Virus genome (UHGV): UHGV-0117334
Reading direction: 5' to 3' (one strand)
DNA: 11,216 nt
Origin: a virus
The notes beneath the pieces are model-generated. The model did not search any database. It was not told where the DNA came from and saw only the letters and a program-made list of their open reading frames with translations. Position numbers and translations under genes: made by a program. Within the stretch, counting starts at the first letter, position 1. Each line of letters opens with the position of its first letter. Shown piece after piece: positions 1 to 11,216 of the stretch.

Positions 1-18
1 TGCGGTTACTCTGCTCAT
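1..18 (-). CDS. 5' end of an Rz-like i-spanin gene (only first ~6 codons in window; continues beyond the left edge)
   Basis: Minus-strand ATG at 16-18 overlaps the lysozyme stop (ATGA). Encoded start MSRVTA matches the N-terminus of lambda Rz as I recall it. Position downstream of holin and endolysin is canonical. Confidence 0.35.
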
Positions 19-515
19 TGCTGCCCCCACAAACAGACTTCACGCTCAATCTCACGGCGAGTCATCAGCCCTTTCCATTGCTTGCCGCCAGCATATGTCC
101 AGCGACGTAGTTGATCACATGCACCTTTGATATCGCCCTGGTTGATTTTGCGAAGAAGTGTCGATGTTCTGAAATTGCCTGCACCCACGTTGTAAACGAA
201 CGAGTAAAGAGCACCACGCGTTGTTTCCGGTATATCGACTTTGATGTACGGGTTAATTTGTCTGGCGACAGTAGCAAGGTCTTTATTCAGGAGAGCTTTG
301 CATTCTGCTTCGGTATACGTTTTACCGAGCATAATGTCTTTTCCTGTATGCCCGTAACATACAGTCCATACACCAACGATGTCTTTGTAGGGGTTATGTC
401 TCACACCTTCCAGACCATCGTTGCCGCTCGGACCAGAGATGAGCACAGATGCTATGGCAATAGCCCCGCCACCAATAGCAGTTGCGACAGCTTTGCGTAA
501 TGATGACTGCATCAT
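15..515 (-). CDS. SAR-type endolysin (T4-type / GH24 phage lysozyme)
   Basis: 166-aa ORF. N-terminal Gly/Ala-rich hydrophobic segment ([21 protein letters not shown]) is typical of a signal-anchor-release domain, followed by a GLEG...D...T lysozyme catalytic region. Closely resembles phage 21 R / E. coli RrrD-type lysozymes from memory. Start ATG overlaps the holin stop (ATGA at 512-515). Confidence 0.9.
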
Positions 516-784
516 ATTTCCTTCGGTGCTCTCTTTCCCAATTCACCAATAACCATCGCCGTGGCGGAAATATTATTGGCATCAGTTTTATCCAATATGT
601 CCTGCAATATCTTCGTGCGCTTCATCTGCTCGCGTTTATTGAGCCGGTATGTAAGTACACCGAGGATAATGCTGAACGCGACACCGATAATGAAGCCCCA
701 ATCCTGCAATGACAGGCTGGCAAAGAACGCAGTAAGACCAGCACTACCATAAGATGCGCTGCTGTATCGTTCATCCATCTTCAT
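512..784 (-). CDS. class II holin (S21-like pinholin candidate)
   Basis: 90-aa ORF directly upstream of and overlapping the endolysin. Two predicted TM helices ([10 protein letters not shown] and [16 protein letters not shown]), Met-Lys-Met dual-start motif, charged C-terminus. GAGGT Shine-Dalgarno 7 nt upstream of the ATG. Confidence 0.8.
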
Positions 785-879
785 ATCTCTTACCTCGCAA
801 TAGTTGCTGAGGTTTCGGCTTGGAAACTATACGGCGAGAAATAACCCCATCAAAAACGGCAGGGGAATATATTCTTCAG

Positions 880-2001
880 TTACTCAAATAACTTTTTCAC
901 TTCATCAACTGTCTGAAGATAACGTTCACCCTCAATCTCAATACCGATTGCCTGACGACCTAACTTCAGCGCGGCTTTAATAGTAGAGCCTGATCCCATA
1001 AAGAAATCGGCAACGATATCTCCGGGGCGGGAACTACTTTTTATAATATGTTCCATCATCGCTGCAGGTTTTTCACATGGGTGCTTGCCAGGATAATATT
1101 GCACAGGAGGAAACTCCCATACATCGGTATAAGGTACATCAGCAGTAACATGAAATGGGCGGCGCAAATTTTCATACTGAGCCTTCAAATCATCATACTG
1201 CTTCTTTACTTCCTCATAACGCAATTTCAGATCGCTATAACGCTTTTCATGTTCTGAATAATCAACATTAAAAGGATATGGACACGGGACACCGAGTGAA
1301 TCTGCCTTCCTGCGAAATAATTCGCATAGTTTATTAAAATCACTTAATGATGGAAGCCGCCACTGCGAATAAGAAAACCAGTGCGAACACATCTGCTTTC
1401 CTGTTGCTGAATTAATGTCTGCGGCTGATATATCTAACTGACGGCGAGCCAGCGAAAAAGCATCAATTAGTGGAGAAAAAATATTTTTTCTTAAATCTGC
1501 ACATTTTGAAGCATAACCTGACTGACCTTTAGCATAACCTGACGCGCCGTAATGCTCTGCAAATAATATTCTTTCAGTGGCAGGAAAATAAGCCCTTAAA
1601 CTTTCTTTATGACAACCGCGCCACATACCACTGGGTTTAGCCCAAATGATATGGTTCAGAACATTGAAACGGTCGCGAGTTAATAATTCAATTTTTGACG
1701 CAAGGCGAGAGCCGGTAAACATATACAGGCTGCCATTAGGGGCCAATATCCGCCAAAATTCTGCCAAAAATTCATCAATCCACCCCAAAAAGTCAGCATC
1801 GCTATCCCACTGGTTATCCCATGCGTTAGCCTTTACGCCGAAGTATGGTGGGTCTGTTGCAATCAAATTGACCGAGTTATCAGGGATGGTTTTGATAAAT
1901 TGCAGAGAATCTGCGCAAACGAGTTGCGCGCCATGAATATTAGTGGTTTTGAACATAGCTATTATTTTTTTGCCTGGGTAAGCTAACCCGGCGATGCGCA
2001 T
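880..2001 (-). CDS. orphan DNA methyltransferase, beta-class amino-MTase (N6-adenine or N4-cytosine)
   Basis: 373-aa ORF with DPPY catalytic motif near the N-terminus (LIATDPPYFG) and SAM-binding motif I near the C-terminus (DFFMGSGSTIKAA), the circularly permuted order of beta-class MTases. Carries a coiled-coil-like insert (EHEKRYSDLKLRYEEVKKQYDDLKAQYENLRR). No restriction endonuclease partner in the window. No obvious SD before ATG 2001; an alternative start exists at Met16 (~1956). Confidence 0.85.
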   Translation of the reverse strand: MRIAGLAYPGKKIIAMFKTTNIHGAQLVCADSLQFIKTIPDNSVNLIATDPPYFGVKANAWDNQWDSDADFLGWIDEFLAEFWRILAPNGSLYMFTGSRLASKIELLTRDRFNVLNHIIWAKPSGMWRGCHKESLRAYFPATERILFAEHYGASGYAKGQSGYASKCADLRKNIFSPLIDAFSLARRQLDISAADINSATGKQMCSHWFSYSQWRLPSLSDFNKLCELFRRKADSLGVPCPYPFNVDYSEHEKRYSDLKLRYEEVKKQYDDLKAQYENLRRPFHVTADVPYTDVWEFPPVQYYPGKHPCEKPAAMMEHIIKSSSRPGDIVADFFMGSGSTIKAALKLGRQAIGIEIEGERYLQTVDEVKKLFE

Positions 2002-2091
2002 CGCGGGTGGGCTTTAGGTTCAGCCTATAGCTCTGGCATGGGTTGACCGCAGGACAAGCTGCAACTTGTCCTGCGCCCACTTTTCAGGCAC

Positions 2092-2116
2092 AAAAAAACC
2101 GCCATAAAGGCGGCTT
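2092..2116 (-). terminator. rho-independent terminator candidate (minus strand)
   Basis: On the minus strand: GC stem CCGCC/GGCGG (with G-U closing pair), 5-nt loop, then a run of 7 U. Lies between the two-gene leftward operon (2704->2224) and the methyltransferase. Confidence 0.5.
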
Positions 2117-2201
2117 GTTGGCTGTTGGGTACAAAAAACCCAACTTAACAAAACAATAACTAAAAACCGTAATTTTGCCAAGCTTTTTCGTTTTTGTGCT
2201 G

Positions 2202-2219
2202 TGCGACCGTGGTCGCACA
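2202..2219. repeat. 18-bp palindrome TGCGACCGTGGTCGCACA, copy 1 of 3; SopB/ParB-type centromere-like site candidate
   Basis: Exact 18-mer shared with 6403-6420 (reverse orientation) and 8848-8865. Arms TGCGACC/GGTCGCA around a GT centre. Differs from the recalled F sopC SopB site TGGGACCACGGTCCCA by one base per arm. Intergenic, followed by TTTTT on the + strand. Confidence 0.6.
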
Positions 2220-2223
2220 GTTT

Positions 2224-2451
2224 TTAGAAAGTTGCCTGCTTATATTCATCGGTCAAAGAATATCGACCAGACCCGCTACGCTTTGCAACCCCAAAACAGA
2301 TCATCTGTTCGATGATAAATTCAACGGCAGCTTGACTCAAAAAACAGGCTTCGCTTAACTCTTTCAGGGAAATGCGTGGGTATCCACGCATAACACATTC
2401 CACACTCAGGGCCGCTTCAGTCATATTTCCACGAATTTCATTAATATTCAT
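2224..2451 (-). CDS. hypothetical small protein (75 aa), possible winged-helix DNA-binding fold
   Basis: ORF with GAGAGG SD-like sequence about 6 nt upstream of the ATG. Follows the upstream small gene closely (13-bp gap). No recognisable catalytic motif. Confidence 0.55.
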   Translation of the reverse strand: MNINEIRGNMTEAALSVECVMRGYPRISLKELSEACFLSQAAVEFIIEQMICFGVAKRSGSGRYSLTDEYKQATF

Positions 2452-2464
2452 AACGCCTCTCTAA

Positions 2465-2704
2465 TCAATCTTGAAACTGGAAATCAACATCAGCCATAAA
2501 GCGGTTCAACTCAGCCAGTTTTGGCCCCATAGTCCCAACTAAGCGACCAGCCAGTCGGTCTGCCAGGTTGGTACTGTTGAAACCATATTCCTTTTCGAAA
2601 CGTTCAACCTTCTGCCACAACTCATACAGTTCGTTAGCTATCTCCGCAACGTCGTCGCGCATTTTTTCGTTACCTTGATAATTCATAATATCCTCCAAAT
2701 TCAT
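2465..2704 (-). CDS. hypothetical small protein (79 aa as drawn; more likely 73 aa starting at the internal ATG 2686)
   Basis: ORF from the track. The internal ATG at 2684-2686 (Met7) is preceded by a strong GGAGG SD 5 nt upstream, whereas ATG 2704 has none. Divergent from the toxin-antitoxin operon. Confidence 0.55.
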   Translation of the reverse strand: MNLEDIMNYQGNEKMRDDVAEIANELYELWQKVERFEKEYGFNSTNLADRLAGRLVGTMGPKLAELNRFMADVDFQFQD

Positions 2705-2774
2705 ATAGTTAGTGGGTTATTGCCCCTCAATGACACGAACTGTAACTCTGCCAAACGAACACATCCAGTGTTAT

Positions 2775-2792
2775 TTTCACTTTTTAGTGAAA
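2775..2792. promoter_or_regulatory. palindromic operator candidate upstream of the toxin-antitoxin operon (TTTCACT-N4-AGTGAAA)
   Basis: Perfect 7-bp inverted repeat with a 4-bp T spacer, about 60 bp upstream of the toxin ATG in the divergent promoter region. Type II TA operons are typically autoregulated through such sites. Confidence 0.45.
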
Positions 2793-2850
2793 TTTTTAAT
2801 TTGCGCTTTTTTCTTGTTTTGGTGTATTTTATGGCTATGGAGGCTATAAT

Positions 2851-3174
2851 ATGTTTAACGTGATAACCCACCCTGCAGCACTGGATGAACTGCTTGAACT
2901 ACCAGATGATTTGCGAGGTCGCATGACCAGATTAATTGAGCGACTGGAGAAGGAAGGCAACAAACTGAAGATGCCCCATAGCCGTGTAATAGGTGGAGGG
3001 CTTTTTGAACTACGAGTAGGGGATAAAAACATCGCAAGAACGCTGTACGCCTACGCGACTGGTAACGAAATTTATCTATTGCATGCTTTTGTCGAAACAA
3101 CGAAATATAACAAACAGAAAACACCGGTGAAGGCTATCGAAATCGCCAGAACTCGCCTGAAGGAGATGAACTGA
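2851..3174 (+). CDS. type II toxin, Gp49-like / HigB-like (RelE/ParE superfamily)
   Basis: 107-aa ORF with the family hallmark pattern ...RTLYAYATGNEIYLLHAFVETTKYNKQKTPVKAIEIARTRL. GGAGG SD 7 nt upstream of the ATG. Stop overlaps the start of the downstream HTH gene (TGATG). Confidence 0.8.
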   Translation: MFNVITHPAALDELLELPDDLRGRMTRLIERLEKEGNKLKMPHSRVIGGGLFELRVGDKNIARTLYAYATGNEIYLLHAFVETTKYNKQKTPVKAIEIARTRLKEMN

Positions 3175-3461
3175 TGAAAGCGAAAGGCATCCCGTTTAAC
3201 GAAGTAAAAGAAAAACTTCTCAACACTCCAGAAGCCATCAAAGGATATGAAGAGGCCGATAAAGAGCTGGAGATGGTCGAAATGTTATACGAAATGAGGG
3301 AAAGAGCAGGTTTAACGAAGTCAGCTCTGGCTGAACGAATGGGATTGCGCCCGTCAGCTATCAGCCGCCTGGAAAGCAATCCTTTAGGGGCAAGCATGAA
3401 AACTTTATCAAAATATGCCCAAGCATGCGGTGCAACGATTAATATTAATGCCGTCTATTGA
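3174..3461 (+). CDS. XRE-family HTH antitoxin (HigA-like) partner of the upstream toxin
   Basis: 95-aa ORF translationally coupled to the toxin. Helix-turn-helix segment LTKSALAERMGLRPSAISRLE. Toxin-first gene order is typical of HigBA-type modules. Confidence 0.8.
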   Translation: MKAKGIPFNEVKEKLLNTPEAIKGYEEADKELEMVEMLYEMRERAGLTKSALAERMGLRPSAISRLESNPLGASMKTLSKYAQACGATININAVY

Positions 3462-3478
3462 TTAGACCCTTTTCGCTA

Positions 3479-3498
3479 CCCCGTCCAGAAGGGCGGGG
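3479..3498. terminator. hairpin between convergent genes (possible bidirectional terminator)
   Basis: CCCCGTCC-AGAA-GGGCGGGG stem-loop (8 bp with one G-U pair) between the end of the antitoxin (+) and the end of the 72-aa ORF (-). Flanking U-tracts are weak. Confidence 0.35.
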
Positions 3499-3504
3499 TG
3501 TGTA

Positions 3505-3723
3505 TCAATGATGCAAACACTCAACAGCAATAACTTGTTGGCAATTCTGAGCAATCTCCCGCGACATACTAACAAGTCGTGAAATCTCGCCAAGATGCAA
3601 GCTGGCTTCTGGAGAAGCCAGAGCAACGCTAACCAGATCCAAAACGGCGTCGATGTCTTTTAGGTTTGATCCGAGTTCTTCAAGAGTTGATACAGGTGCT
3701 TCAGTCATTGAATCTAATACCAT
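3505..3723 (-). CDS. hypothetical small acidic protein (72 aa); candidate SOS-controlled antirepressor
   Basis: ORF lies immediately downstream (minus strand) of a near-consensus LexA box and an operator-like sequence. No clear SD before the ATG, so the translation start is uncertain. Function inferred from context only. Confidence 0.4.
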   Translation of the reverse strand: MVLDSMTEAPVSTLEELGSNLKDIDAVLDLVSVALASPEASLHLGEISRLVSMSREIAQNCQQVIAVECLHH

Positions 3724-3747
3724 TTAATTAAAAAAGGTTATTTGATA

Positions 3748-3763
3748 CTGTATAAAATTACAG
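3748..3763. promoter_or_regulatory. LexA (SOS) box CTGT-N8-ACAG
   Basis: tACTGTATAAAATTACAGgg matches the E. coli LexA consensus TACTGTATATATATACAGTA at 16 of 20 positions, with an AT-rich 8-bp spacer. Sits 25-40 bp upstream of the minus-strand 72-aa ORF. Confidence 0.6.
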
Positions 3764-3773
3764 GGTAAAACTC

Positions 3774-3791
3774 AAATTTTATAGCCAACTT
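3774..3791. promoter_or_regulatory. operator-like sequence related to the repressor/cro operators
   Basis: AAATTTTATAGCCA is identical over 14 nt (16 of 18 over the extended site) to 7601-7618 in the repressor/cro intergenic operator region. Confidence 0.4.
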
Positions 3792-3964
3792 TCAATGGAT
3801 TAACTGGTTAAATATCTTTGTAGTCCGATACTTATGTTCCCTTCCTACGCCTCGCCCAACCACTTTCAAAAGCCCATCACCACCATCAGAAAAGCTCTTT
3901 TCGCTTCGTTTTCTCATCATTTCAAAAACTATGCCTTTTTGTTTATTTATCATTCCGTGACCAG

Positions 3965-4291
3965 TCACACTTTGAGCACAAGTTTCAGCCTCGTAGTTGT
4001 AAGGTGACATGAGCCTTCACCATCAAAAATACATTCTGAAACAGGCATTTTCTGACCACATCGCGGGCAAGTAGTAGATAGCTGCTTCTGCAGCTCCTTA
4101 TAGTTTTTCCTGATCAGCAGACCGATGACTTCATTCTCTGAATATGGAACTCGTCCCGGTCTACGCAATACACAAATTTCCCCCAACATACGTAGCTCGT
4201 CAGGTTCCAGAATCCAGTCCCGTCTTGATGTGCCTTCCTTCTTCAACCGTTCCCTGCGTCTCCTTTGCCGTTCTGCAGCTGTCAGCGCCAT
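3965..4291 (-). CDS. hypothetical protein with C-terminal Zn-ribbon (CPRC...C..C) and Arg/Lys-rich N-terminus
   Basis: 108-aa ORF with strong GGAGG SD 4 nt upstream of the ATG. Motif CPRCGQKMPVSECIFDGEGSCH. Last gene of the leftward early operon. Confidence 0.6.
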   Translation of the reverse strand: MALTAAERQRRRRERLKKEGTSRRDWILEPDELRMLGEICVLRRPGRVPYSENEVIGLLIRKNYKELQKQLSTTCPRCGQKMPVSECIFDGEGSCHLTTTRLKLVLKV

Positions 4292-4310
4292 AAATCCTCC
4301 TGAAAATTAC

Positions 4311-4865
4311 TTAACCCAATGCAGGAAGTGAAACAGAAAACTGAATATGACCATCCGGAGTTACCGGAGAGTTGCCAGCCTCATACGCGACCCTTATCCA
4401 GTGCATAAACATTTCAGTACTTACACATCCACAATCAACATCAATTTTGTCATGCTGCTGTTCCAGCCATTGCTCAAAAGTTAACTTGTAAGTTTGGCTT
4501 ACAGGTTTGGCTTCCAGTTCTGCTACGCGCTGTTTTGCAGCATCCAGTTCAATCGACAATTTTTCCAACTGCTCTTTATGCTTCTTGTATTCCTGATATG
4601 CGTGCCAGGACTGACCTTTGCGCACACTATCAGTAATATCAGTAATCTGTTCTGGTGTTAGCGTGGTCAGTGGCTGTGCTGGGAAAATCAGCACTTTCCC
4701 GGAATCCCAATCAAAACCAGCGTGAATTGACTGAACCTCAACTGAGGGTGTTGAACCAATGCTGCCAGGCGAATGAATAACGATTGTTACATCCATATCG
4801 CAACGCTGGCTGTGTTTGTTGGACAAGATACGATTCACCAACTCAGAAAATTTGGAAAATTTCAT
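4311..4865 (-). CDS. hypothetical protein (184 aa)
   Basis: ORF whose start overlaps the stop of the upstream gene (ATGA). Central coiled-coil-like segment (KEQLEKLSIELDAAKQRVAELEAK). No recognisable catalytic motif. Confidence 0.65.
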   Translation of the reverse strand: MKFSKFSELVNRILSNKHSQRCDMDVTIVIHSPGSIGSTPSVEVQSIHAGFDWDSGKVLIFPAQPLTTLTPEQITDITDSVRKGQSWHAYQEYKKHKEQLEKLSIELDAAKQRVAELEAKPVSQTYKLTFEQWLEQQHDKIDVDCGCVSTEMFMHWIRVAYEAGNSPVTPDGHIQFSVSLPALG

Positions 4866-5152
4866 GCTGATTCCCCTTTCTCTGCTCTCTCCTGTCGGAA
4901 CATCACTATCATCAGGTCGCCTTTTGTCGCTATCTTGGCTGTTGTGCCTGGCTCAATGCGGCTAAGTTCAAATGCGTCATAGAACGCCTCTAACACTTTC
5001 TGGCGTCTTTCCTGTTTGCGGTGCTTTCCCCACTGCTTTAGAAAAACAGAGGCCGCCCACTTCCCCGCACTGAACATGATGTAAAACCAACCGAGAAGTG
5101 CCAGACCGATATTTATGGCCGTATCGATCGTTATCGTGGTGTCGATATTCAC
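4862..5152 (-). CDS. hypothetical small membrane protein (96 aa)
   Basis: Start overlaps the upstream stop. One predicted N-terminal TM helix (INIGLALLGWFYIMFSAG) followed by a basic stretch. Confidence 0.55.
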   Translation of the reverse strand: MNIDTTITIDTAINIGLALLGWFYIMFSAGKWAASVFLKQWGKHRKQERRQKVLEAFYDAFELSRIEPGTTAKIATKGDLMIVMFRQERAEKGESA

Positions 5153-5571
5153 TACGCCACCTCCTGAAAATTTCCCTGATAAAAAGCCAGCACACGCTGC
5201 ATAACTTCACTTTTCCGGCAATCGTGACAAATCATGTTCAAGCGCCTGTCGTAACGACGTATTTCTCCGTCAGGTAATGACCAGATAAGGTCTGGATCAA
5301 CCACTACCGATGTCTTCGGCTTTACTCTTGATAGTTTTTTACGGGCGTTTTGCCAGTCCTTGCGTGCTTGTGCAGACAGAAATATCCCGGAGCCAGAGAT
5401 ATACAAATCACCACTGGCAGCAAGCTCTCTTGATAAACGACTAACAGCACACCGGCTAATACCAGTTTCATCCGCAAGTTGCCTAACCGTTCCTCGTCCA
5501 TTCAGGCGCACGAGTTCCACAATTTGTTTATTCAGTTCTTCCCTCTGTTCTGGTGTAAAAGCCTTTGCCAT
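5152..5571 (-). CDS. putative DNA-binding protein with (winged) helix-turn-helix
   Basis: 139-aa ORF; HTH-like segment GTVRQLADETGISRCAVSRLSREL. Start overlaps the exonuclease stop (TAATG), indicating translational coupling. Confidence 0.65.
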   Translation of the reverse strand: MAKAFTPEQREELNKQIVELVRLNGRGTVRQLADETGISRCAVSRLSRELAASGDLYISGSGIFLSAQARKDWQNARKKLSRVKPKTSVVVDPDLIWSLPDGEIRRYDRRLNMICHDCRKSEVMQRVLAFYQGNFQEVA

Positions 5572-6170
5572 TACGATTCTCCTTGCCCTTTTACAAGACG
5601 GGAGAAAATTGCTGATACATATTTATCCTGATGAATAGCATCAGCCAGGGCATTGTGTCGTTCGCCATCAAATGGCATATCTTTTTTAGGATTAAAACCA
5701 ATAAACTGACCAAGGTTAACGATTGTTCGAACATCCTGATCATTAAAATATTCCCACGGACAGGCTAAGCCAACGCGCTCATAAGCACCGCGTAAAATTA
5801 CATTATCGAACGTTGCTCCATTTCCCCATACTTTCAATTTTTTTAAATTACATGCATGGCAAGTAATAAAGTGTGATAATTCAAAAAGTGCATCCTTAAT
5901 ATCAAGGGCATCATTAGTACAAATTGCTGCTCTGGCTTCCTTGCTCTGTTTCAACCACCATAAAATGGTATCACCATCGGCGACACCACCATTCAACATC
6001 GAGCTTCTGAGATTCACTGGTACATAAAAAGTAGGACCTAATTCCTCACTTTCTGGAGAAAAAAACACTGCCCCGATAGAAACAATTGGAGCACATGTGT
6101 TAGTACCCATTGTTTCAAGGTCAATCATTACATCAGACCGTTTCCTGTCGTAAATAATCTGATTAGTCAC
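5571..6170 (-). CDS. DEDDh-family 3'-5' exonuclease (DnaQ-like fold)
   Basis: 199-aa ORF with Exo I motif MIDLETMG, an Exo II-like Asp (GATFDN) and Exo III motif H-x4-D (ERHNALADAIH). GTG start with GAGGAG SD 8 nt upstream. Confidence 0.8.
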   Translation of the reverse strand: MTNQIIYDRKRSDVMIDLETMGTNTCAPIVSIGAVFFSPESEELGPTFYVPVNLRSSMLNGGVADGDTILWWLKQSKEARAAICTNDALDIKDALFELSHFITCHACNLKKLKVWGNGATFDNVILRGAYERVGLACPWEYFNDQDVRTIVNLGQFIGFNPKKDMPFDGERHNALADAIHQDKYVSAIFSRLVKGQGES

Positions 6171-6193
6171 GAATAATTCTCCTCAACGTTTAT

Positions 6194-6397
6194 CTATACC
6201 CAAATTTTCTGTTGATATGTTCTGGATGGTTTTGGCGTTCTTTCTGATTCAGGTAAATGAACATAAACGCAATATCCATCACCTAAAAAATCAGAACGAA
6301 CAACCAGAACTTTCTTACCACGCCGCCGATAAGTATCTGAAAGACGCTCTGCTTCATCATGCGTCATCGGCCCCTGCTTAAATGGCGTTATTTTCAT
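6194..6397 (-). CDS. hypothetical small protein (67 aa from ATG 6397; track ORF extends to 6421 via a GTG inside the palindrome)
   Basis: ORF in the leftward operon. The 18-bp palindrome sits 6-23 nt upstream of the ATG, over the ribosome-binding region. Confidence 0.5.
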   Translation of the reverse strand: MKITPFKQGPMTHDEAERLSDTYRRRGKKVLVVRSDFLGDGYCVYVHLPESERTPKPSRTYQQKIWV

Positions 6398-6698
6398 TTT
6401 CTTGTGCGACCACGGTCGCACCCTCTCTGATTTCCAAGTAACGCTTAATCCAAAGATTTTCTATATGCTTATTACCTGGCTGATTTGATAAATACCAATC
6501 GGCAATTACAGACTGCTTATTACTATCTGGTCGTGTCCTGTAACCACAAGTTGGACACCAGATAACATATTCATTTCTTACCCCCGAATACCTTAATTCT
6601 GGCTTCGACGGTTTCCTGAACATAACTTGTTTACAAAGGCAGAATGGCACTTCCTGCCCGATGGCGTTTGATGATTTCACTGCGCTTCTCCGCCGCAT
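6378..6698 (-). CDS. hypothetical Zn-ribbon protein (CPTCGYR motif); start uncertain
   Basis: 106-aa ORF from the track. Its 5' 68 nt overlap the upstream 236-aa gene, and an internal ATG at 6623 would give 81 aa. The C-terminal residues ATVVAQ are encoded by the palindrome. Confidence 0.5.
   Translation of the reverse strand: MRRRSAVKSSNAIGQEVPFCLCKQVMFRKPSKPELRYSGVRNEYVIWCPTCGYRTRPDSNKQSVIADWYLSNQPGNKHIENLWIKRYLEIREGATVVAQENENNAI
6403..6420. repeat. 18-bp palindrome, copy 2 of 3 (reverse orientation); centromere-like site candidate
   Basis: TGTGCGACCACGGTCGCA on the + strand is the exact reverse complement of the 18-mer at 2202-2219 and 8848-8865. Overlaps the 3' end of the 106-aa ORF and the translation initiation region of the next gene. 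Confidence 0.6.
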
Positions 6699-7341
6699 TT
6701 AATAATGCAGTTCGATTTAAGCTCAGACATCGCGACTTAATTAAAAGCCAGCGTTCTTTATAATCTTGTCTCCAGCTATCAATAGATATATTCAGTAGAA
6801 AACTCAGATGCCTGTCCTGTTCTCTCTCATCAACTGCCTCAGCACACGTAAGTTCTGATTTAACCTGCTGTGCCGCGTAATAAATCAATTTCCGCATGGC
6901 TTTTTTCGTGGAGGCCTTCATTTTTTTAAAGCCGCCCCCCGAATGAGCAACCAGAAAATCAAGCCATAACCACTGACAAACAATCACATCATTGTTGTAA
7001 TCAGGCTTGCATCCGTAGCAATAATAAAGCCAGGCTGATTCCTCGTTATTCAACTGACCAATAGCCCTGCGCCAGCTGGCGCTCTGAAAATCAATATCAG
7101 TGAGCAACATTGATGATTGTTTAAATGTTTTCCCCTGGTGGAATCTAACCGGCTCAGCAGGAACGGACACTTCGTATGAGTTATCATCACCTACACTGAT
7201 TGACCGGACTGGTTTATTGTTAAAGCGTCCTGATCTGCCTAGACGCATCTGCTCAAGCTGGACCTCTAGGATGCCACGCTGGCGATAATGAATATCAGCC
7301 AATGCCGTGGATACGCAGCTGCGTATATACTCAAGCTCCAC
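6631..7341 (-). CDS. hypothetical protein (236 aa); Q-like late antiterminator candidate by position
   Basis: GTG start with AAGGAG SD about 10 nt upstream, immediately after cro. Several Cys residues (CYGC...C). Antiterminator role is inferred only from the cB-cro-Q gene order recalled for N15-like phages, not from a recognised motif. Confidence 0.6.
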   Translation of the reverse strand: MELEYIRSCVSTALADIHYRQRGILEVQLEQMRLGRSGRFNNKPVRSISVGDDNSYEVSVPAEPVRFHQGKTFKQSSMLLTDIDFQSASWRRAIGQLNNEESAWLYYCYGCKPDYNNDVIVCQWLWLDFLVAHSGGGFKKMKASTKKAMRKLIYYAAQQVKSELTCAEAVDEREQDRHLSFLLNISIDSWRQDYKERWLLIKSRCLSLNRTALLNAAEKRSEIIKRHRAGSAILPL

Positions 7342-7579
7342 GCTTACGGCTCTCCTTAATCGACTGCTTTACCCGCCGAGTTGTAAAGTCACTCTTCAGC
7401 TTGTAAGCAGTACGAACTTCAATATCACTTTGCCGCAATGAAGGAATCTCTCCAGCGGTTAACCATTGGTAAACAGCACCGGGTGTTACACCTACCCCAG
7501 CCGCTGCTTTTTCTACACTGCCAAAGTGGCGAATAAGTTCTTCTGGTTTCATGCGGTTATTATAAGCAATAAATCGCAT
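7331..7579 (-). CDS. cro: Cro-like HTH regulator
   Basis: 82-aa ORF divergent from the repressor. HTH segment FGSVEKAAAGVGVTPGAVYQWL is typical of Cro/YdaS-type proteins. An alternative start at ATG 7552 (MKPEEL...) lies just downstream of a TATAAT-like hexamer. Confidence 0.75.
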   Translation of the reverse strand: MRFIAYNNRMKPEELIRHFGSVEKAAAGVGVTPGAVYQWLTAGEIPSLRQSDIEVRTAYKLKSDFTTRRVKQSIKESRKRGA

Positions 7580-7580
7580 T

Positions 7581-7620
7581 TAAAGCCAGCTATAATAAAT
7601 AAATTTTATAGCCAGCTATA
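7581..7620. promoter_or_regulatory. operator region: two 14-bp palindromes TA(A/T)AGC-CA-GCTATA between divergent repressor and cro genes
   Basis: TAAAGCCAGCTATA (7581-7594) and TATAGCCAGCTATA (7607-7620) are spaced 26 bp centre to centre in the 64-bp intergenic region; the second ends 23 bp before the repressor ATG. Confidence 0.6.
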
Positions 7621-7643
7621 AGAAGATCATTTATGATTAAGCT

Positions 7644-8240
7644 ATGAAAACACGAGGCGAACGACTGAAAGCACGCCGTTTAGAGATGAAGCTGACGTTG
7701 CGAGAAGTTGCTGAGGCTGTCGATATCTCTATTGCAGGCGTCCAAAACTTAGAACGTGGCGACGTAATGCCGTCACTGGAGATAGGTATTGCCCTGGCTA
7801 AGTGCTTACGCAAGCCAGTGCATTGGGTGCTATATGGGACAGAATATGACCCTGATCGCATTCCTGTTATTGGCACAACTGAAAGTGGGCCGGATGAAGA
7901 GTGGAAGCCGGGACAGGTTCCAAATACTGAGCGATTCCTGCCATTCATCAGCCAGCGCAATACTGTGTATGCGTTAACTATCAGCAATCTTACGCAGGGA
8001 AACTATCAGCCAGGCGATTTTCTCCTGGTCGATTCTGCGCTGGAACTGGTCCCCGGCGAGGATGTTCTGGTTCGTGATACTGCAGGAAATATCACTATCC
8101 AGCGCCTGGCCCGTTTTGATGATGAAAATTACTATCTGGATGGAACAAACTCACAACGCGCCATCTTCAGGAAAAGCGATCTTGAATTTGTTCACCAAAT
8201 AGTCGGAACGATCAAATCATTCATGGTTGAGGGTAGATGA
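7644..8240 (+). CDS. phage repressor, CI/CB-type (N-terminal XRE HTH, C-terminal beta-rich domain)
   Basis: 198-aa ORF. HTH segment LTLREVAEAVDISIAGVQNLERG. The C-terminal domain resembles the oligomerisation / peptidase-like domain of CI/LexA-type repressors, but I could not pick out a clear Ser-Lys catalytic dyad by eye. No SD before the ATG, so it may be translated from a leaderless or short-leader mRNA. Confidence 0.85.
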   Translation: MKTRGERLKARRLEMKLTLREVAEAVDISIAGVQNLERGDVMPSLEIGIALAKCLRKPVHWVLYGTEYDPDRIPVIGTTESGPDEEWKPGQVPNTERFLPFISQRNTVYALTISNLTQGNYQPGDFLLVDSALELVPGEDVLVRDTAGNITIQRLARFDDENYYLDGTNSQRAIFRKSDLEFVHQIVGTIKSFMVEGR

Positions 8241-8341
8241 CTTAATACGGGGTTTATTGTTTGCTGTAAATCTGGTTTAATGCAGGGCATATGTTCTGTG
8301 GGTTGACTCAGGTTACAGCAGCAGAAAAAAGACGAAAAAAA

Positions 8342-8370
8342 ACCCGAGTCGGCAAACTCGGGTCCTTTTC
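8342..8370 (+). terminator. rho-independent terminator downstream of the repressor gene
   Basis: A-tract, then 8-bp stem ACCCGAGT/ACTCGGGT with 6-nt loop, then CCTTTTC. Located about 100 bp after the repressor stop. Confidence 0.6.
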
Positions 8371-8485
8371 AGGAAGCAGCCACAACAACGCGACAGATTC
8401 CGTCAATTCAAGATGCGTTTATTGTGGCTGCTCCTGCGGATTTTTTCAACCCGAAAAAACATAATTCGCATGGAATGGCTAAAAA

Positions 8486-11020
8486 ATGACATTAAACGAT
8501 TTCTATGCGGATCGCTTTGGCAGCGATCCGTTCTCGCTAATTGAAGCAGCACGGGATGAAATAACCGAGCTGGCACAGATGGCTGGTATCAACTGGCCTG
8601 CCTGTTCCGACAACATCCAACTCAACCCTCGCGGGGGGGGTGAGCGTTACTCTTCATACAATAAAACATCTCCAGAAGCTCTCGAAAAGAGCCTGAAAGG
8701 ACGCGTAGAAATTTACTCCAGGCTGGAACACAGCAAAGGGATTGATTACCCGTTCATTAACTTCGTCCATAAAGGCAGCGATGCTGGCTCATGGAGCGGT
8801 TTCTCCTTCCTGTTTTCTGAATATCGCCGTGAGCAACAACGGAATAATGCGACCGTGGTCGCACAACCGGAAGAAGAACGGGCAAGAATAGAACGTCAGG
8901 CCGAAGCACGTCGTCGCCGTGAAGAACAAAAACGAATTAATGACCTGAAAAACAACCAAATGGACCATGAACGTTTGCTGGGATGGCTGGCATTCCACAG
9001 TGCTTGGGAACATGCTCCTGCAGAAGACGGCTCATGGCCATATGCGATTAAAAAAGGTATTCGTGACGTTTTTAATTCGTGTGATGTGCGTCGCGTGACC
9101 AGTCACGACAGCGCAAAATGGAGCAGGGGGCCAACCACGTATATGGCTATCCCTCTGGCTCACCTGGACGGTCGTTACGATGGTCGTATTGTTGGTTGGC
9201 AGAGAATCGACAAACAAGGTGGAAAATACCAGACCAGCGCCGTAACCAGCGGCGATTTCGTCGGTGCCTGCTTTGTTATCGGTGAGCTGAAAGGGGCGCA
9301 AAACATCGCTGTTACAGAAGGTTTTGCTACTGGTGCATCCATCTGGCTTGCCACGAAAAAAGATAAACGCTTTGACGCTGTGGTTGTCGCTGTATCCGCT
9401 AACAACATGGTTCATGTTGTGGAACAACTGGTAAACATGTACCCGGCGGCAAAAATCACCTGCGCACTGGATAATGACCGGAAATCAGCTACAGAAGGAA
9501 AAGGGAATACCGGCCTGCGGACTGGCTATGAAATCTTATCGAAATTCAACGATGTCCGCTGCGTCTATCCAACTTTTGAAGACGATCCGCAAATGGAGTG
9601 CAGTGACTTCAACGACCTGCACAAACTACGTGGACTTCGTGAAACAGCACGTCAACTGTTTGCAACTGCAAACCGCCTGAAAACTGGCACTGATTTGCTA
9701 TCTCTGACGCTCAACCGCCTGAAGACAATTAAGCGGGATAACCGTCGTACTTTTGCCAAAGAGCTGCTGAGAGCGGTGGATATTGGCATGCTAACCTGTC
9801 CGGTTCCTAACAGTCCGTCAGACTTATTTAACATGTTCTGCATCGTTCTGCGTGAAATGGGGCTGGAAAATATCTATCGCGCTACGGTAAAAGACCACAT
9901 TGCCCGTCGCCTGAATAAAAAGTGCCGTATTGCCCAGGCTCCGCGCTCATTCAGCGAACGCATAACTGATCCCAATAAACGTCCTCAACATATCACCTAT
10001 AAGCGTTTTGAAACTTCGGTAATGACCGATGACGTCCTGAAGTACGTGCAATCACTACAGGGGATAGTCATCGTCCGTGCTGGTATGGGTTCCGGCAAAT
10101 CTACTGGATTGTTACGACCGTTAATGCATAGCTCAGAACGTGGTATCTCTGTTGCTCACCGTGTCTCCCTTATTGGTGGCCTGTGGGAAATGATGACAGA
10201 AGGAAAAGGTGTAAAAGCCGATATCCTGCACTATCAGGACCCTGGCTATCAGGAAATGGCTCCATACGCCAGTAAACTGACCATCTGCATAAACTCGATT
10301 GTTAAAAACTGCTGGCAACCGTTGATGCGCCAGCACGACTATTTTGGCTTTGACGAGGCCACACAAGGGCTACGTGCCGTTCTTTCCGGTCGGGCTATGG
10401 AAAACCCGGTGGCTGTATTCCATACGCTAATTGACGCGCTGGCCAGAACGGAACAACACCCAATCATGGTGGATGCTGATGCGAACGATCTGCTGGTTGA
10501 CCTGGCTGAACTGGCTATGAAACGCCGTGAAGAACTAGGTTTACCGGCATGGCTGCAGATCCACGTAATTGAATTACCTGTTGATGTTCGCAACCGCGAA
10601 ACAGGTGAGCCAATCCGGGTTTTTTATACAGAAAAAGATCGCATTATGACCGAGGTGGTGAAAGCTGTATCGGATGGCGAAAAAATCATGTTGGCCACCG
10701 ACAGCTCCACCTTTGCAGAAGATGTGACAGCCACCCTGAGAATGCATTTTCCTGGTAAGAAATTTCTGTGTGTAAACCAGAAAAGTAAACAGGATGAAGA
10801 AGTCGATGCCTTTACCAACCAGCCAAAAGTAATGGTGATGAAATACGATGGACTGATCTACAGTCCGTCAATTTCCTCCGGGGTGTCATTTGAGAAAAAA
10901 CATTTTGACCGTCATTTCGGCATGTTCTGCGGTGAAGTTGTGCCCAGCGACGCAGTGCAAATGCTACGCCGCGACCGTACAGCAAAAGAATTTATTATCG
11001 GCTTTGAAAGATACGGATAA
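8486..11020 (+). CDS. repA: replication protein: Toprim-type primase fused to a P-loop helicase (RepA-like primase-helicase)
   Basis: 844-aa ORF. Toprim motifs (IAVTEGFATGASI with catalytic Glu; CALDNDRK DxD motif). Walker A (GMGSGKST) and Walker B-like (YFGFDEATQG) in the C-terminal half. Same strand as and downstream of the repressor, as recalled for repA in N15-like phage-plasmids. Gene symbol is by architecture only. Confidence 0.85.
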   Translation: MTLNDFYADRFGSDPFSLIEAARDEITELAQMAGINWPACSDNIQLNPRGGGERYSSYNKTSPEALEKSLKGRVEIYSRLEHSKGIDYPFINFVHKGSDAGSWSGFSFLFSEYRREQQRNNATVVAQPEEERARIERQAEARRRREEQKRINDLKNNQMDHERLLGWLAFHSAWEHAPAEDGSWPYAIKKGIRDVFNSCDVRRVTSHDSAKWSRGPTTYMAIPLAHLDGRYDGRIVGWQRIDKQGGKYQTSAVTSGDFVGACFVIGELKGAQNIAVTEGFATGASIWLATKKDKRFDAVVVAVSANNMVHVVEQLVNMYPAAKITCALDNDRKSATEGKGNTGLRTGYEILSKFNDVRCVYPTFEDDPQMECSDFNDLHKLRGLRETARQLFATANRLKTGTDLLSLTLNRLKTIKRDNRRTFAKELLRAVDIGMLTCPVPNSPSDLFNMFCIVLREMGLENIYRATVKDHIARRLNKKCRIAQAPRSFSERITDPNKRPQHITYKRFETSVMTDDVLKYVQSLQGIVIVRAGMGSGKSTGLLRPLMHSSERGISVAHRVSLIGGLWEMMTEGKGVKADILHYQDPGYQEMAPYASKLTICINSIVKNCWQPLMRQHDYFGFDEATQGLRAVLSGRAMENPVAVFHTLIDALARTEQHPIMVDADANDLLVDLAELAMKRREELGLPAWLQIHVIELPVDVRNRETGEPIRVFYTEKDRIMTEVVKAVSDGEKIMLATDSSTFAEDVTATLRMHFPGKKFLCVNQKSKQDEEVDAFTNQPKVMVMKYDGLIYSPSISSGVSFEKKHFDRHFGMFCGEVVPSDAVQMLRRDRTAKEFIIGFERYG
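8848..8865. repeat. 18-bp palindrome, copy 3 of 3, inside the primase-helicase coding sequence
   Basis: TGCGACCGTGGTCGCACA identical to 2202-2219. Encodes the residues ATVVAQ of the replication protein. Confidence 0.6.
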
Positions 11021-11021
11021 G

Positions 11022-11216
11022 GGATACCGTAATGCGGCTTTGAACTTCGCTTCGGGTTTCGCTGATCAAAATGTTTATATCGAGGTCATGAAACACATGT
11101 TAAAGGCGAAGCCGGAAGTCAAGGTGGATATCTTGAACTGGATAGGCCGTGAAAGCAAATGCCCGTCTAAACATGACGTGATCAAGAATCTGGAACTTCG
11201 TTTTGATCTACCAGCG
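11022..11216 (+). CDS. open reading frame in the +1 frame relative to repA, running off the window end; either a frameshifted C-terminal continuation of the replication protein or a separate downstream gene
   Basis: This frame is open from 10857 to 11216 with no stop, overlapping the last 164 nt of repA. Both frames look protein-like. First in-frame ATG is at 11088. Confidence 0.4.

Follow-up and report, generated by a model that had tools for sequence, protein, structure and literature searches.

Three copies of a short palindrome found in the virus genome UHGV-0117334 are very probably three of the five dispersed centromere (parS-like) sites to which the partition protein SopB binds in a linear phage-plasmid of the N15 family. 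The analyzed stretch of 11,216 nucleotides, referred to below as the window, corresponds to the right arm of an Escherichia coli N15-like linear phage-plasmid (N15 family, Ravinvirus) that represents a species other than N15. Positions 1-11007 show 98% identity to the Escherichia phages YDC107_1 and PhiR46_1 (97.7% in the case of PhiR46_1) and ∼75% DNA identity to phiKO2, N15, and their Klebsiella and Enterobacter relatives. The palindromes are the already described N15-type dispersed centromere, seen here in a close relative of N15, and do not constitute a new system.

The repeated sequence came to attention as an exact 18-mer, TGCGACCGTGGTCGCACA, which occurs in the window at positions 2202-2219 and 8848-8865 on the plus strand and at positions 6403-6420 on the minus strand. 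An earlier note on this DNA had listed these three copies, with the same coordinates and strands, and had argued that such a recurrence could not be due to chance. The expectation estimated from shuffled sequences is indeed 0.01 matches per window, and none of the 200 shuffles reached 5. With up to 3 mismatches allowed, no further match to TGCGACCGTGGTCGCACA was found in the window beyond the palindromic self-hits, and the single extra half-site detected there corresponds to the chance level. The description of the 18-mer as a palindrome needs an adjustment, as its frame is shifted by one base relative to the true symmetry. The symmetric unit is the 16-bp core TGCGACCnnGGTCGCA, located at positions 2202-2217, 6405-6420, and 8848-8863 and perfect in all three copies. 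A genuine 18-bp palindrome, GTGCGACCnnGGTCGCAC, does exist as an extension of this core, although at only two of the three sites. The central dinucleotide reads GT or AC solely depending on the orientation of the copy. The three copies are separated by 4.2 kb and 2.4 kb and are single scattered sites that do not form a tandem array.

The same core, TGCGACCnnGGTCGCA, is present in all four natural centromere sites of N15, IR1 to IR4 (PMC7205306, Table 4), which in the N15 genome map to positions 33480 (with one mismatch, in repA), 35931, 41125, and 45562. As in the window, the N15 sites are dispersed rather than clustered, and the positions of IR1, IR2, and IR3 match those of the window copies. 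The SopA/SopB operon of N15 lies in the other arm, and the recognition helix of its SopB is of the same type as in the window's lineage. N15 SopB forms foci on an array of four IR sites (4xIR), while F SopB is functional with F sopC alone (PMC7205306). The identity of the core with IR1 to IR4, together with the orthologous positions, upholds the comparison drawn in the earlier note with the dispersed SopB-bound centromere sites of N15. The two systems differ in the central dinucleotides, which are not the same, and in the number of sites, four in N15 versus five in the window's lineage, where the IR4 equivalent is doubled, with the two copies 220 bp apart and just outside the window. In PhiR46_1, the five sites are found in repA, after Q, after gp51, and, as the pair separated by 220 bp, after the lysis genes. 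The window holds three of these five, so that the count of three copies is right for the window but not for the replicon. The RefSeq record of N15 contains a stem-loop at positions 45560-45584, annotated as a “putative rho-independent terminator,” which is in fact the centromere site IR4 (45562-45577).

The number of dispersed copies per genome in the N15 group is 4 in N15, phiKO2, and MStein, 5 in PhiR46_1, and 7 in 48ST307. In phiKO2, a linear prophage of Klebsiella oxytoca, all four copies of the shared core are perfect, and three of their positions are in common with the window. All four are annotated in NC_005857 as an 18-bp “putative plasmid partitioning site,” a prediction made by annotation only. 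This phage differs from the window's phage in its host genus and in having four sites, not five.

The sopC site of the F plasmid, TGGGACCACGGTCCCA (oligonucleotide sopC2 in PMC3597684), is also a 16-bp palindrome recognized by a homologous SopB through the same helix-turn-helix (HTH). Its arms read TGGGACC in place of TGCGACC. The one-base difference per arm, which the earlier note had cited, is apparent from the direct comparison with TGGGACCACGGTCCCA and is stated explicitly for the N15 and F sites, which are one nucleotide apart per half-site (PMC2910045). F sopC consists of 10 to 12 tandem 43-bp repeats adjoining sopB. N15 SopB is reported to function on F sopC as well, whereas F SopB, which carries the residues SRK instead of DRN in its recognition helix, does not use the N15-type site. 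Identity of the window sites with F sopC was rejected, since the window core has C and G, not G and C, at positions 3 and 14, and its copies stand singly, kilobases apart. The chromosomal parS site of ParB (consensus TGTTNCACGTGAAACA) was likewise rejected, as most of its arm positions differ from those of the window sites.

The Yersinia telomere phages PY54 and vB_YenS-P840 (P840) also carry dispersed single palindromes, along with the SopB homologue SpyB. The positions include those seen in the N15 group: within the repA codons, in the Lar-like open reading frame (ORF) after Q, before the methylase gene of the late operon, and after the lysis genes. These phages differ from the N15 group in that the site is of the F type, TGGGACCnnGGTCCCA, and occurs in eight copies, and that the SpyB helix, ENISRKII, is the same as in F. 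In PY54, TGGGACCnnGGTCCCA is found at positions 508, 6566, 26513, 31240, 34394, 39870, 40976, and 44409, and the P840 copies occupy equivalent positions. Dispersed centromere sites thus look to be general in telomere phages.

Two observations weigh against the assignment of the window palindromes to SopB. First, neither sopA nor sopB is encoded within the 11,216 nt of the window, which derives from a contig that is chimeric at one end. Second, SopB of the Vibrio phage K242 has the SRK-type helix, yet its genome contains the N15-type core TGCGACCnnGGTCGCA at three to four sites (6508, 33489, 38343, and 39639).

With regard to the first point, the partition genes are present in the lineage. PhiR46_1 encodes both ParA (Pfam domains AAA_31/CbiA) and ParB, and the latter matches the solved structures of F SopB with an E value of 6e-39 and shows 74% identity to both N15 SopB and phiKO2 SopB. 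The sopA/sopB operon is found in PhiR46_1 and also on the IMG/VR contig 3300045988_145448, whose sequence matches that of the window at 99.9% identity over the 1,578 bp compared; the SopB encoded by this contig and the SopB of PhiR46_1 are 100% identical. Altogether, 15 contigs in IMG/VR combine the site arrangement with SopB; the locus finder used for this count detects close relatives only and missed N15 itself, so that the absence of a contig from the count does not mean the absence of SopB. PhiR46_1 served as the reference for sopAB in place of YDC107_1, in whose record (CP025712.1) no partition genes are visible because the sopAB/tail-fibre end is missing. That record contains the right arm (repA, gp36, BRO, and protelomerase) twice, in inverted orientation, a structure suggestive of misassembly by fold-back at the hairpin telomere.

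The second point concerns the match between the site and the protein. All specificity determinants of SopB are said to lie within residues 177-198 in F and 179-200 in N15 (PMC2910045). The recognition helix in this region reads EGVDRNIISRC in PhiR46_1, EGIDRNIVNRC in N15, and ENISRKIITRC in F. Around the conserved Arg residue, DRN is found in PhiR46_1, N15, and phiKO2, all with TGCGACC sites, and SRK in F, PY54, and P840, all with TGGGACC sites. The PhiR46_1 SopB retains the counterparts of the base-contacting residues Arg190, Arg195, and Arg219. In close relatives, the site and the SopB helix covary. The DRN/SRK specificity rule holds for the N15 group, F, and PY54, but its universality is ruled out by the Vibrio phage K242, a distant relative.

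By analogy with the characterized systems, a SopB dimer, a ParB family member whose gene lies beyond the window, in the other arm, would recognize each 16-bp core via its HTH. The bound SopB could then be expected to nucleate a larger SopB-DNA partition complex, and the SopA ATPase would move such complexes apart on the nucleoid, so that the low-copy prophage would be kept in each daughter cell. This scheme follows the general pattern of the ParB/SopB family, in which a dimer bound to a palindrome by its HTH seeds the assembly of a larger complex and segregation is driven by SopA (PMC7205306, PMC2910045). For the window's phage, SopB binding and partition activity are predicted on the basis of orthology and the literature. 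The arms of the palindrome are identical in every copy, amid DNA that is otherwise ∼75% identical. Selection on the sites is likely to act at the DNA level, given that the amino acids of RepA change from ATVVA to GTTVP with the site type.

The first of the three sites (positions 2202-2217) is the orthologue of N15 IR3 and of the phiKO2 site 45385. It is located between the stop codon of the gp51 homologue (2224-2451, minus strand), 4 bp away, and a promoter-like site of the late, Q-dependent type on the minus strand (2153-2181), with the -35 box TTGGCA at positions 2181-2176 and the -10 box TATTGT at positions 2158-2153. This promoter aligns with the annotated -35 and -10 boxes of N15 (41162/41185) and with the “putative late promoter” of phiKO2. 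Downstream of it, on the same strand, there is a terminator hairpin (2096-2116), which aligns with the N15 stem-loop 41229-41250 and with the phiKO2 terminator and is presumed to be the target of Q antitermination. The order is therefore the gp51 stop, the palindrome, a 20-bp A-rich tract, the -35 box, the -10 box, and the terminator hairpin, in agreement with the earlier note, which had placed this copy next to a hairpin/terminator region. In the alignment of N15, phiKO2, MStein, 48ST307, and PY54 at this site, the core is invariant and the flanks are variable.

The geometry of this arrangement was examined by scanning IMG/VR for the core followed by TTGGCA, with the gap allowed to vary from 10 to 40 bp. 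The scan returned 54 stretches, 53 of which (34 distinct sequences) represented the late-promoter context, with a gap between the site and the -35 box of either 20 or 21 bp. In the window, the 20 bp that separate the palindrome from the -35 box (window 2160-2201, minus strand), CAGCACAAAAACGAAAAAGC, are rich in A on the transcribed strand and look similar to an UP element. Given such an UP-like spacer, the palindrome would span approximately positions -71 to -56 of the promoter. In the Klebsiella phage 48ST307, the late-promoter site is doubled, with the copies 47 bp apart (15133 and 15180), and an extra copy (27548) is found in the structural-gene region.

The second site (positions 6405-6420), the orthologue of N15 IR2 and of the phiKO2 site 40346, lies 211 bp downstream of the gene for the Q antiterminator (6631-7341, minus strand; Pfam Phage_antiter_Q, E value of 2e-84). 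It is contained in the last codons, at the 3′ end, of a small ORF (“orf QD1”; 6378-6698, minus strand) with a weak match to Lar. The earlier note had this copy over the translation initiation region of a small gene. This is correct if the next small ORF begins with the GTG codon used in the YDC107_1-style annotation, which the site covers; with the ATG at position 6394, the site ends up 10 nt upstream of the start codon. Across the relatives, the alignment again shows an invariant core and variable flanks, and in PY54 the equivalent site is located inside the annotated Lar-like ORF44.

The third site (positions 8848-8863) is the orthologue of N15 IR1 and of the phiKO2 site 37906 and falls, as had been claimed, inside repA, where it occupies codons 121-126 and encodes the peptide ATVVA. 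In the codon alignment, all relatives have the site at identical codons, xxT GCG ACC GTG GTC GCA, with ATVVA at approximately amino acids 122-126. The residue preceding this core is Asn, Gly, or His in different relatives, but the third base of its codon is always T. In the RepA proteins of PY54 and P840, the codons at the site are of the F type and the peptide GTTVP replaces ATVVA, so the protein follows the site type. The repA copy is a perfect palindrome in the window, as opposed to one mismatch in the N15 record. The peptide ATVVAQ is indeed encoded in two ORFs, as amino acids 122-127 of RepA and amino acids 94-99 of the Lar-like ORF; this sharing follows from the palindrome itself and carries no further meaning.

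Among the alternatives, the one that fares best accepts that these sites bind SopB and assumes that their selected role at these particular positions is mainly regulatory, with partition possible from any one of the sites. Bound or spreading SopB would then tune the expression of the late promoter, the Q region, or repA, or else would bring the Q gene and the late promoter together. This is possible but appears doubtful. The fixed spacing of 20 to 21 bp between the site and the -35 box in 53 stretches fits it well, as does the fact that PY54 and P840 have kept all three positions (in repA, after Q, and upstream of the late promoter) despite the F-type sequence of their sites. The title of the 2008 paper by Ravin et al. 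also speaks in its favor. On the other hand, positional conservation is equally well explained by plain inheritance combined with coevolution of the sites, and both the number of sites (from 4 to 8) and their extra positions vary among the relatives. Moreover, a regulatory role would add to the role of these sites as a centromere rather than replace it.

The notion, raised in the earlier note, of a partition system that doubles as a regulator of gene expression has reportedly been published already for N15, by Ravin, Rech, and Lane in 2008, and agrees with the fixed spacing at the late promoter. SopB complexes near Q and the late promoter of N15 reportedly help late gene expression. The positions of the sites and the N15 literature suggest a comparable effect on the expression of the late genes, repA, or the Q region in the window's phage. 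A broader possibility, which can be offered only tentatively, is that the fixed positions have been selected in their own right and that the centromere is a part of the lytic control circuit across the telomere-phage group. The argument for it is that the positions survived a concerted switch between the N15 type and the F type of the sites and of the SopB helix. In this switch, C at position 3 (N15 type) is matched by G (F type; PY54 and P840) in all sites, together with the change in the helix; the switch in the site type forced RepA from ATVVA to GTTVP. If this proposal is true, what would be new is the strict placement of the site relative to the promoter and the joint switch of sites and helix throughout the family, while the regulatory link has already been published for N15.

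It is much less probable that the palindromes serve as operators for some DNA-binding protein other than SopB, of phage or host origin, such as a small HTH regulator encoded in the window. Several HTH proteins are indeed encoded there, and a perfect 16-bp palindrome is typical of an operator bound by a dimer. However, N15 SopB forms foci on arrays consisting of these sites alone (PMC7205306), and the site type covaries with the SopB recognition helix in the N15 group, F, and PY54. The operators of the CB repressor in the immunity region are represented by a different palindrome, TTATAGCCAGCTATAA.

Slightly less probable still is a function of the palindromes at the RNA level, as hairpins or transcription terminators, and not as DNA bound by a protein. 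Such a function could be suspected from the overlap of N15 IR4 with a stem-loop annotated as a putative terminator, from the location of the first and second sites at gene ends, and from the ability of the transcript of the second site to form a 7-bp stem just 5′ of the start codon. Nevertheless, the terminator scan called none of the three sites, none of them has a T run on the transcribed strand, and the only call nearby is the hairpin at 2116-2096; their identity as intrinsic terminators was rejected on these grounds. The third site is internal to repA. Every copy has the same arms, with no compensatory variation, which argues for the recognition of a sequence rather than a structure. The local fold of the second site is not significant (z = -1.47), and an RNA-hairpin role for this site was rejected as well.

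There is next to no likelihood that the 18-mer recurs by chance or represents a generic repeat of the host, in view of the chance expectation given above (0.01 per window), the presence of the element, traced by its repA segment, in 17 of the 5,426 complete E. coli genomes, on plasmids every time, and the confinement of the site to conserved positions in SopB-encoding telomere phages; when the 16-mer was looked for in 185,579 species genomes, the matches listed (at least 120) were isolated single sites from unrelated taxa, with Escherichia not among them, a result that is uninformative with respect to E. coli chromosomes.

The gene content of the window agrees with its assignment to the N15 family. 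It includes genes for lysozyme, holin, an N6 DNA methylase (880-2001, minus strand), homologues of gp51 and gp50, and a toxin-antitoxin pair, followed by early genes and then by Q, cro, the cB repressor gene, and repA. The toxin-antitoxin pair consists of two adjoining plus-strand ORFs of 107 and 95 amino acids (2851-3461), which correspond to the RelE/ParE-type toxin and the HTH antitoxin of N15 genes 49/48. With this pair, the arm has a second device for plasmid maintenance. The repA (primase/replicase) gene starts at position 8486 on the plus strand and is represented by its N-terminal ∼840 codons (8486-11007), being interrupted by a junction with foreign DNA at 11007/11008. The similarity to the phage relatives ends at position 11007, and a stop codon at 11018-11020 results in a protein of 844 amino acids versus ∼1,330 amino acids in the relatives. 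The peptide encoded by the last 209 bp (11008-11216) is 98.6% identical to the product of a family 16 glycoside hydrolase gene of Parabacteroides distasonis. The junction at 11007/11008 is probably a chimeric artefact of metagenome assembly and not a genuine truncation of repA.

A different 17-bp palindrome, TGGGGCCAnTGGCCCCA, is present in 9 to 12 dispersed copies in the Aeromonas phage phiARM81ld, mostly at gene ends (for example, at positions 2510, 7034, 24403, 35272, 39335, 43291, and 47018). It may be the ParB site of this phage or a terminator.

This analysis indicates that an E. coli N15-like phage-plasmid found in gut metagenomes and isolates retains the dispersed SopB centromere of the N15/phiKO2 type. 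In its two close relatives in GenBank, YDC107_1 and PhiR46_1, the sites have been left unannotated, and the 16-mers can be used as a simple annotation marker for the elements of the N15 family. The strict geometry of the late-promoter site offers a defined construct for the published link between Sop and late expression. Finally, the common site predicts partition incompatibility among N15, phiKO2, and the window's phage.

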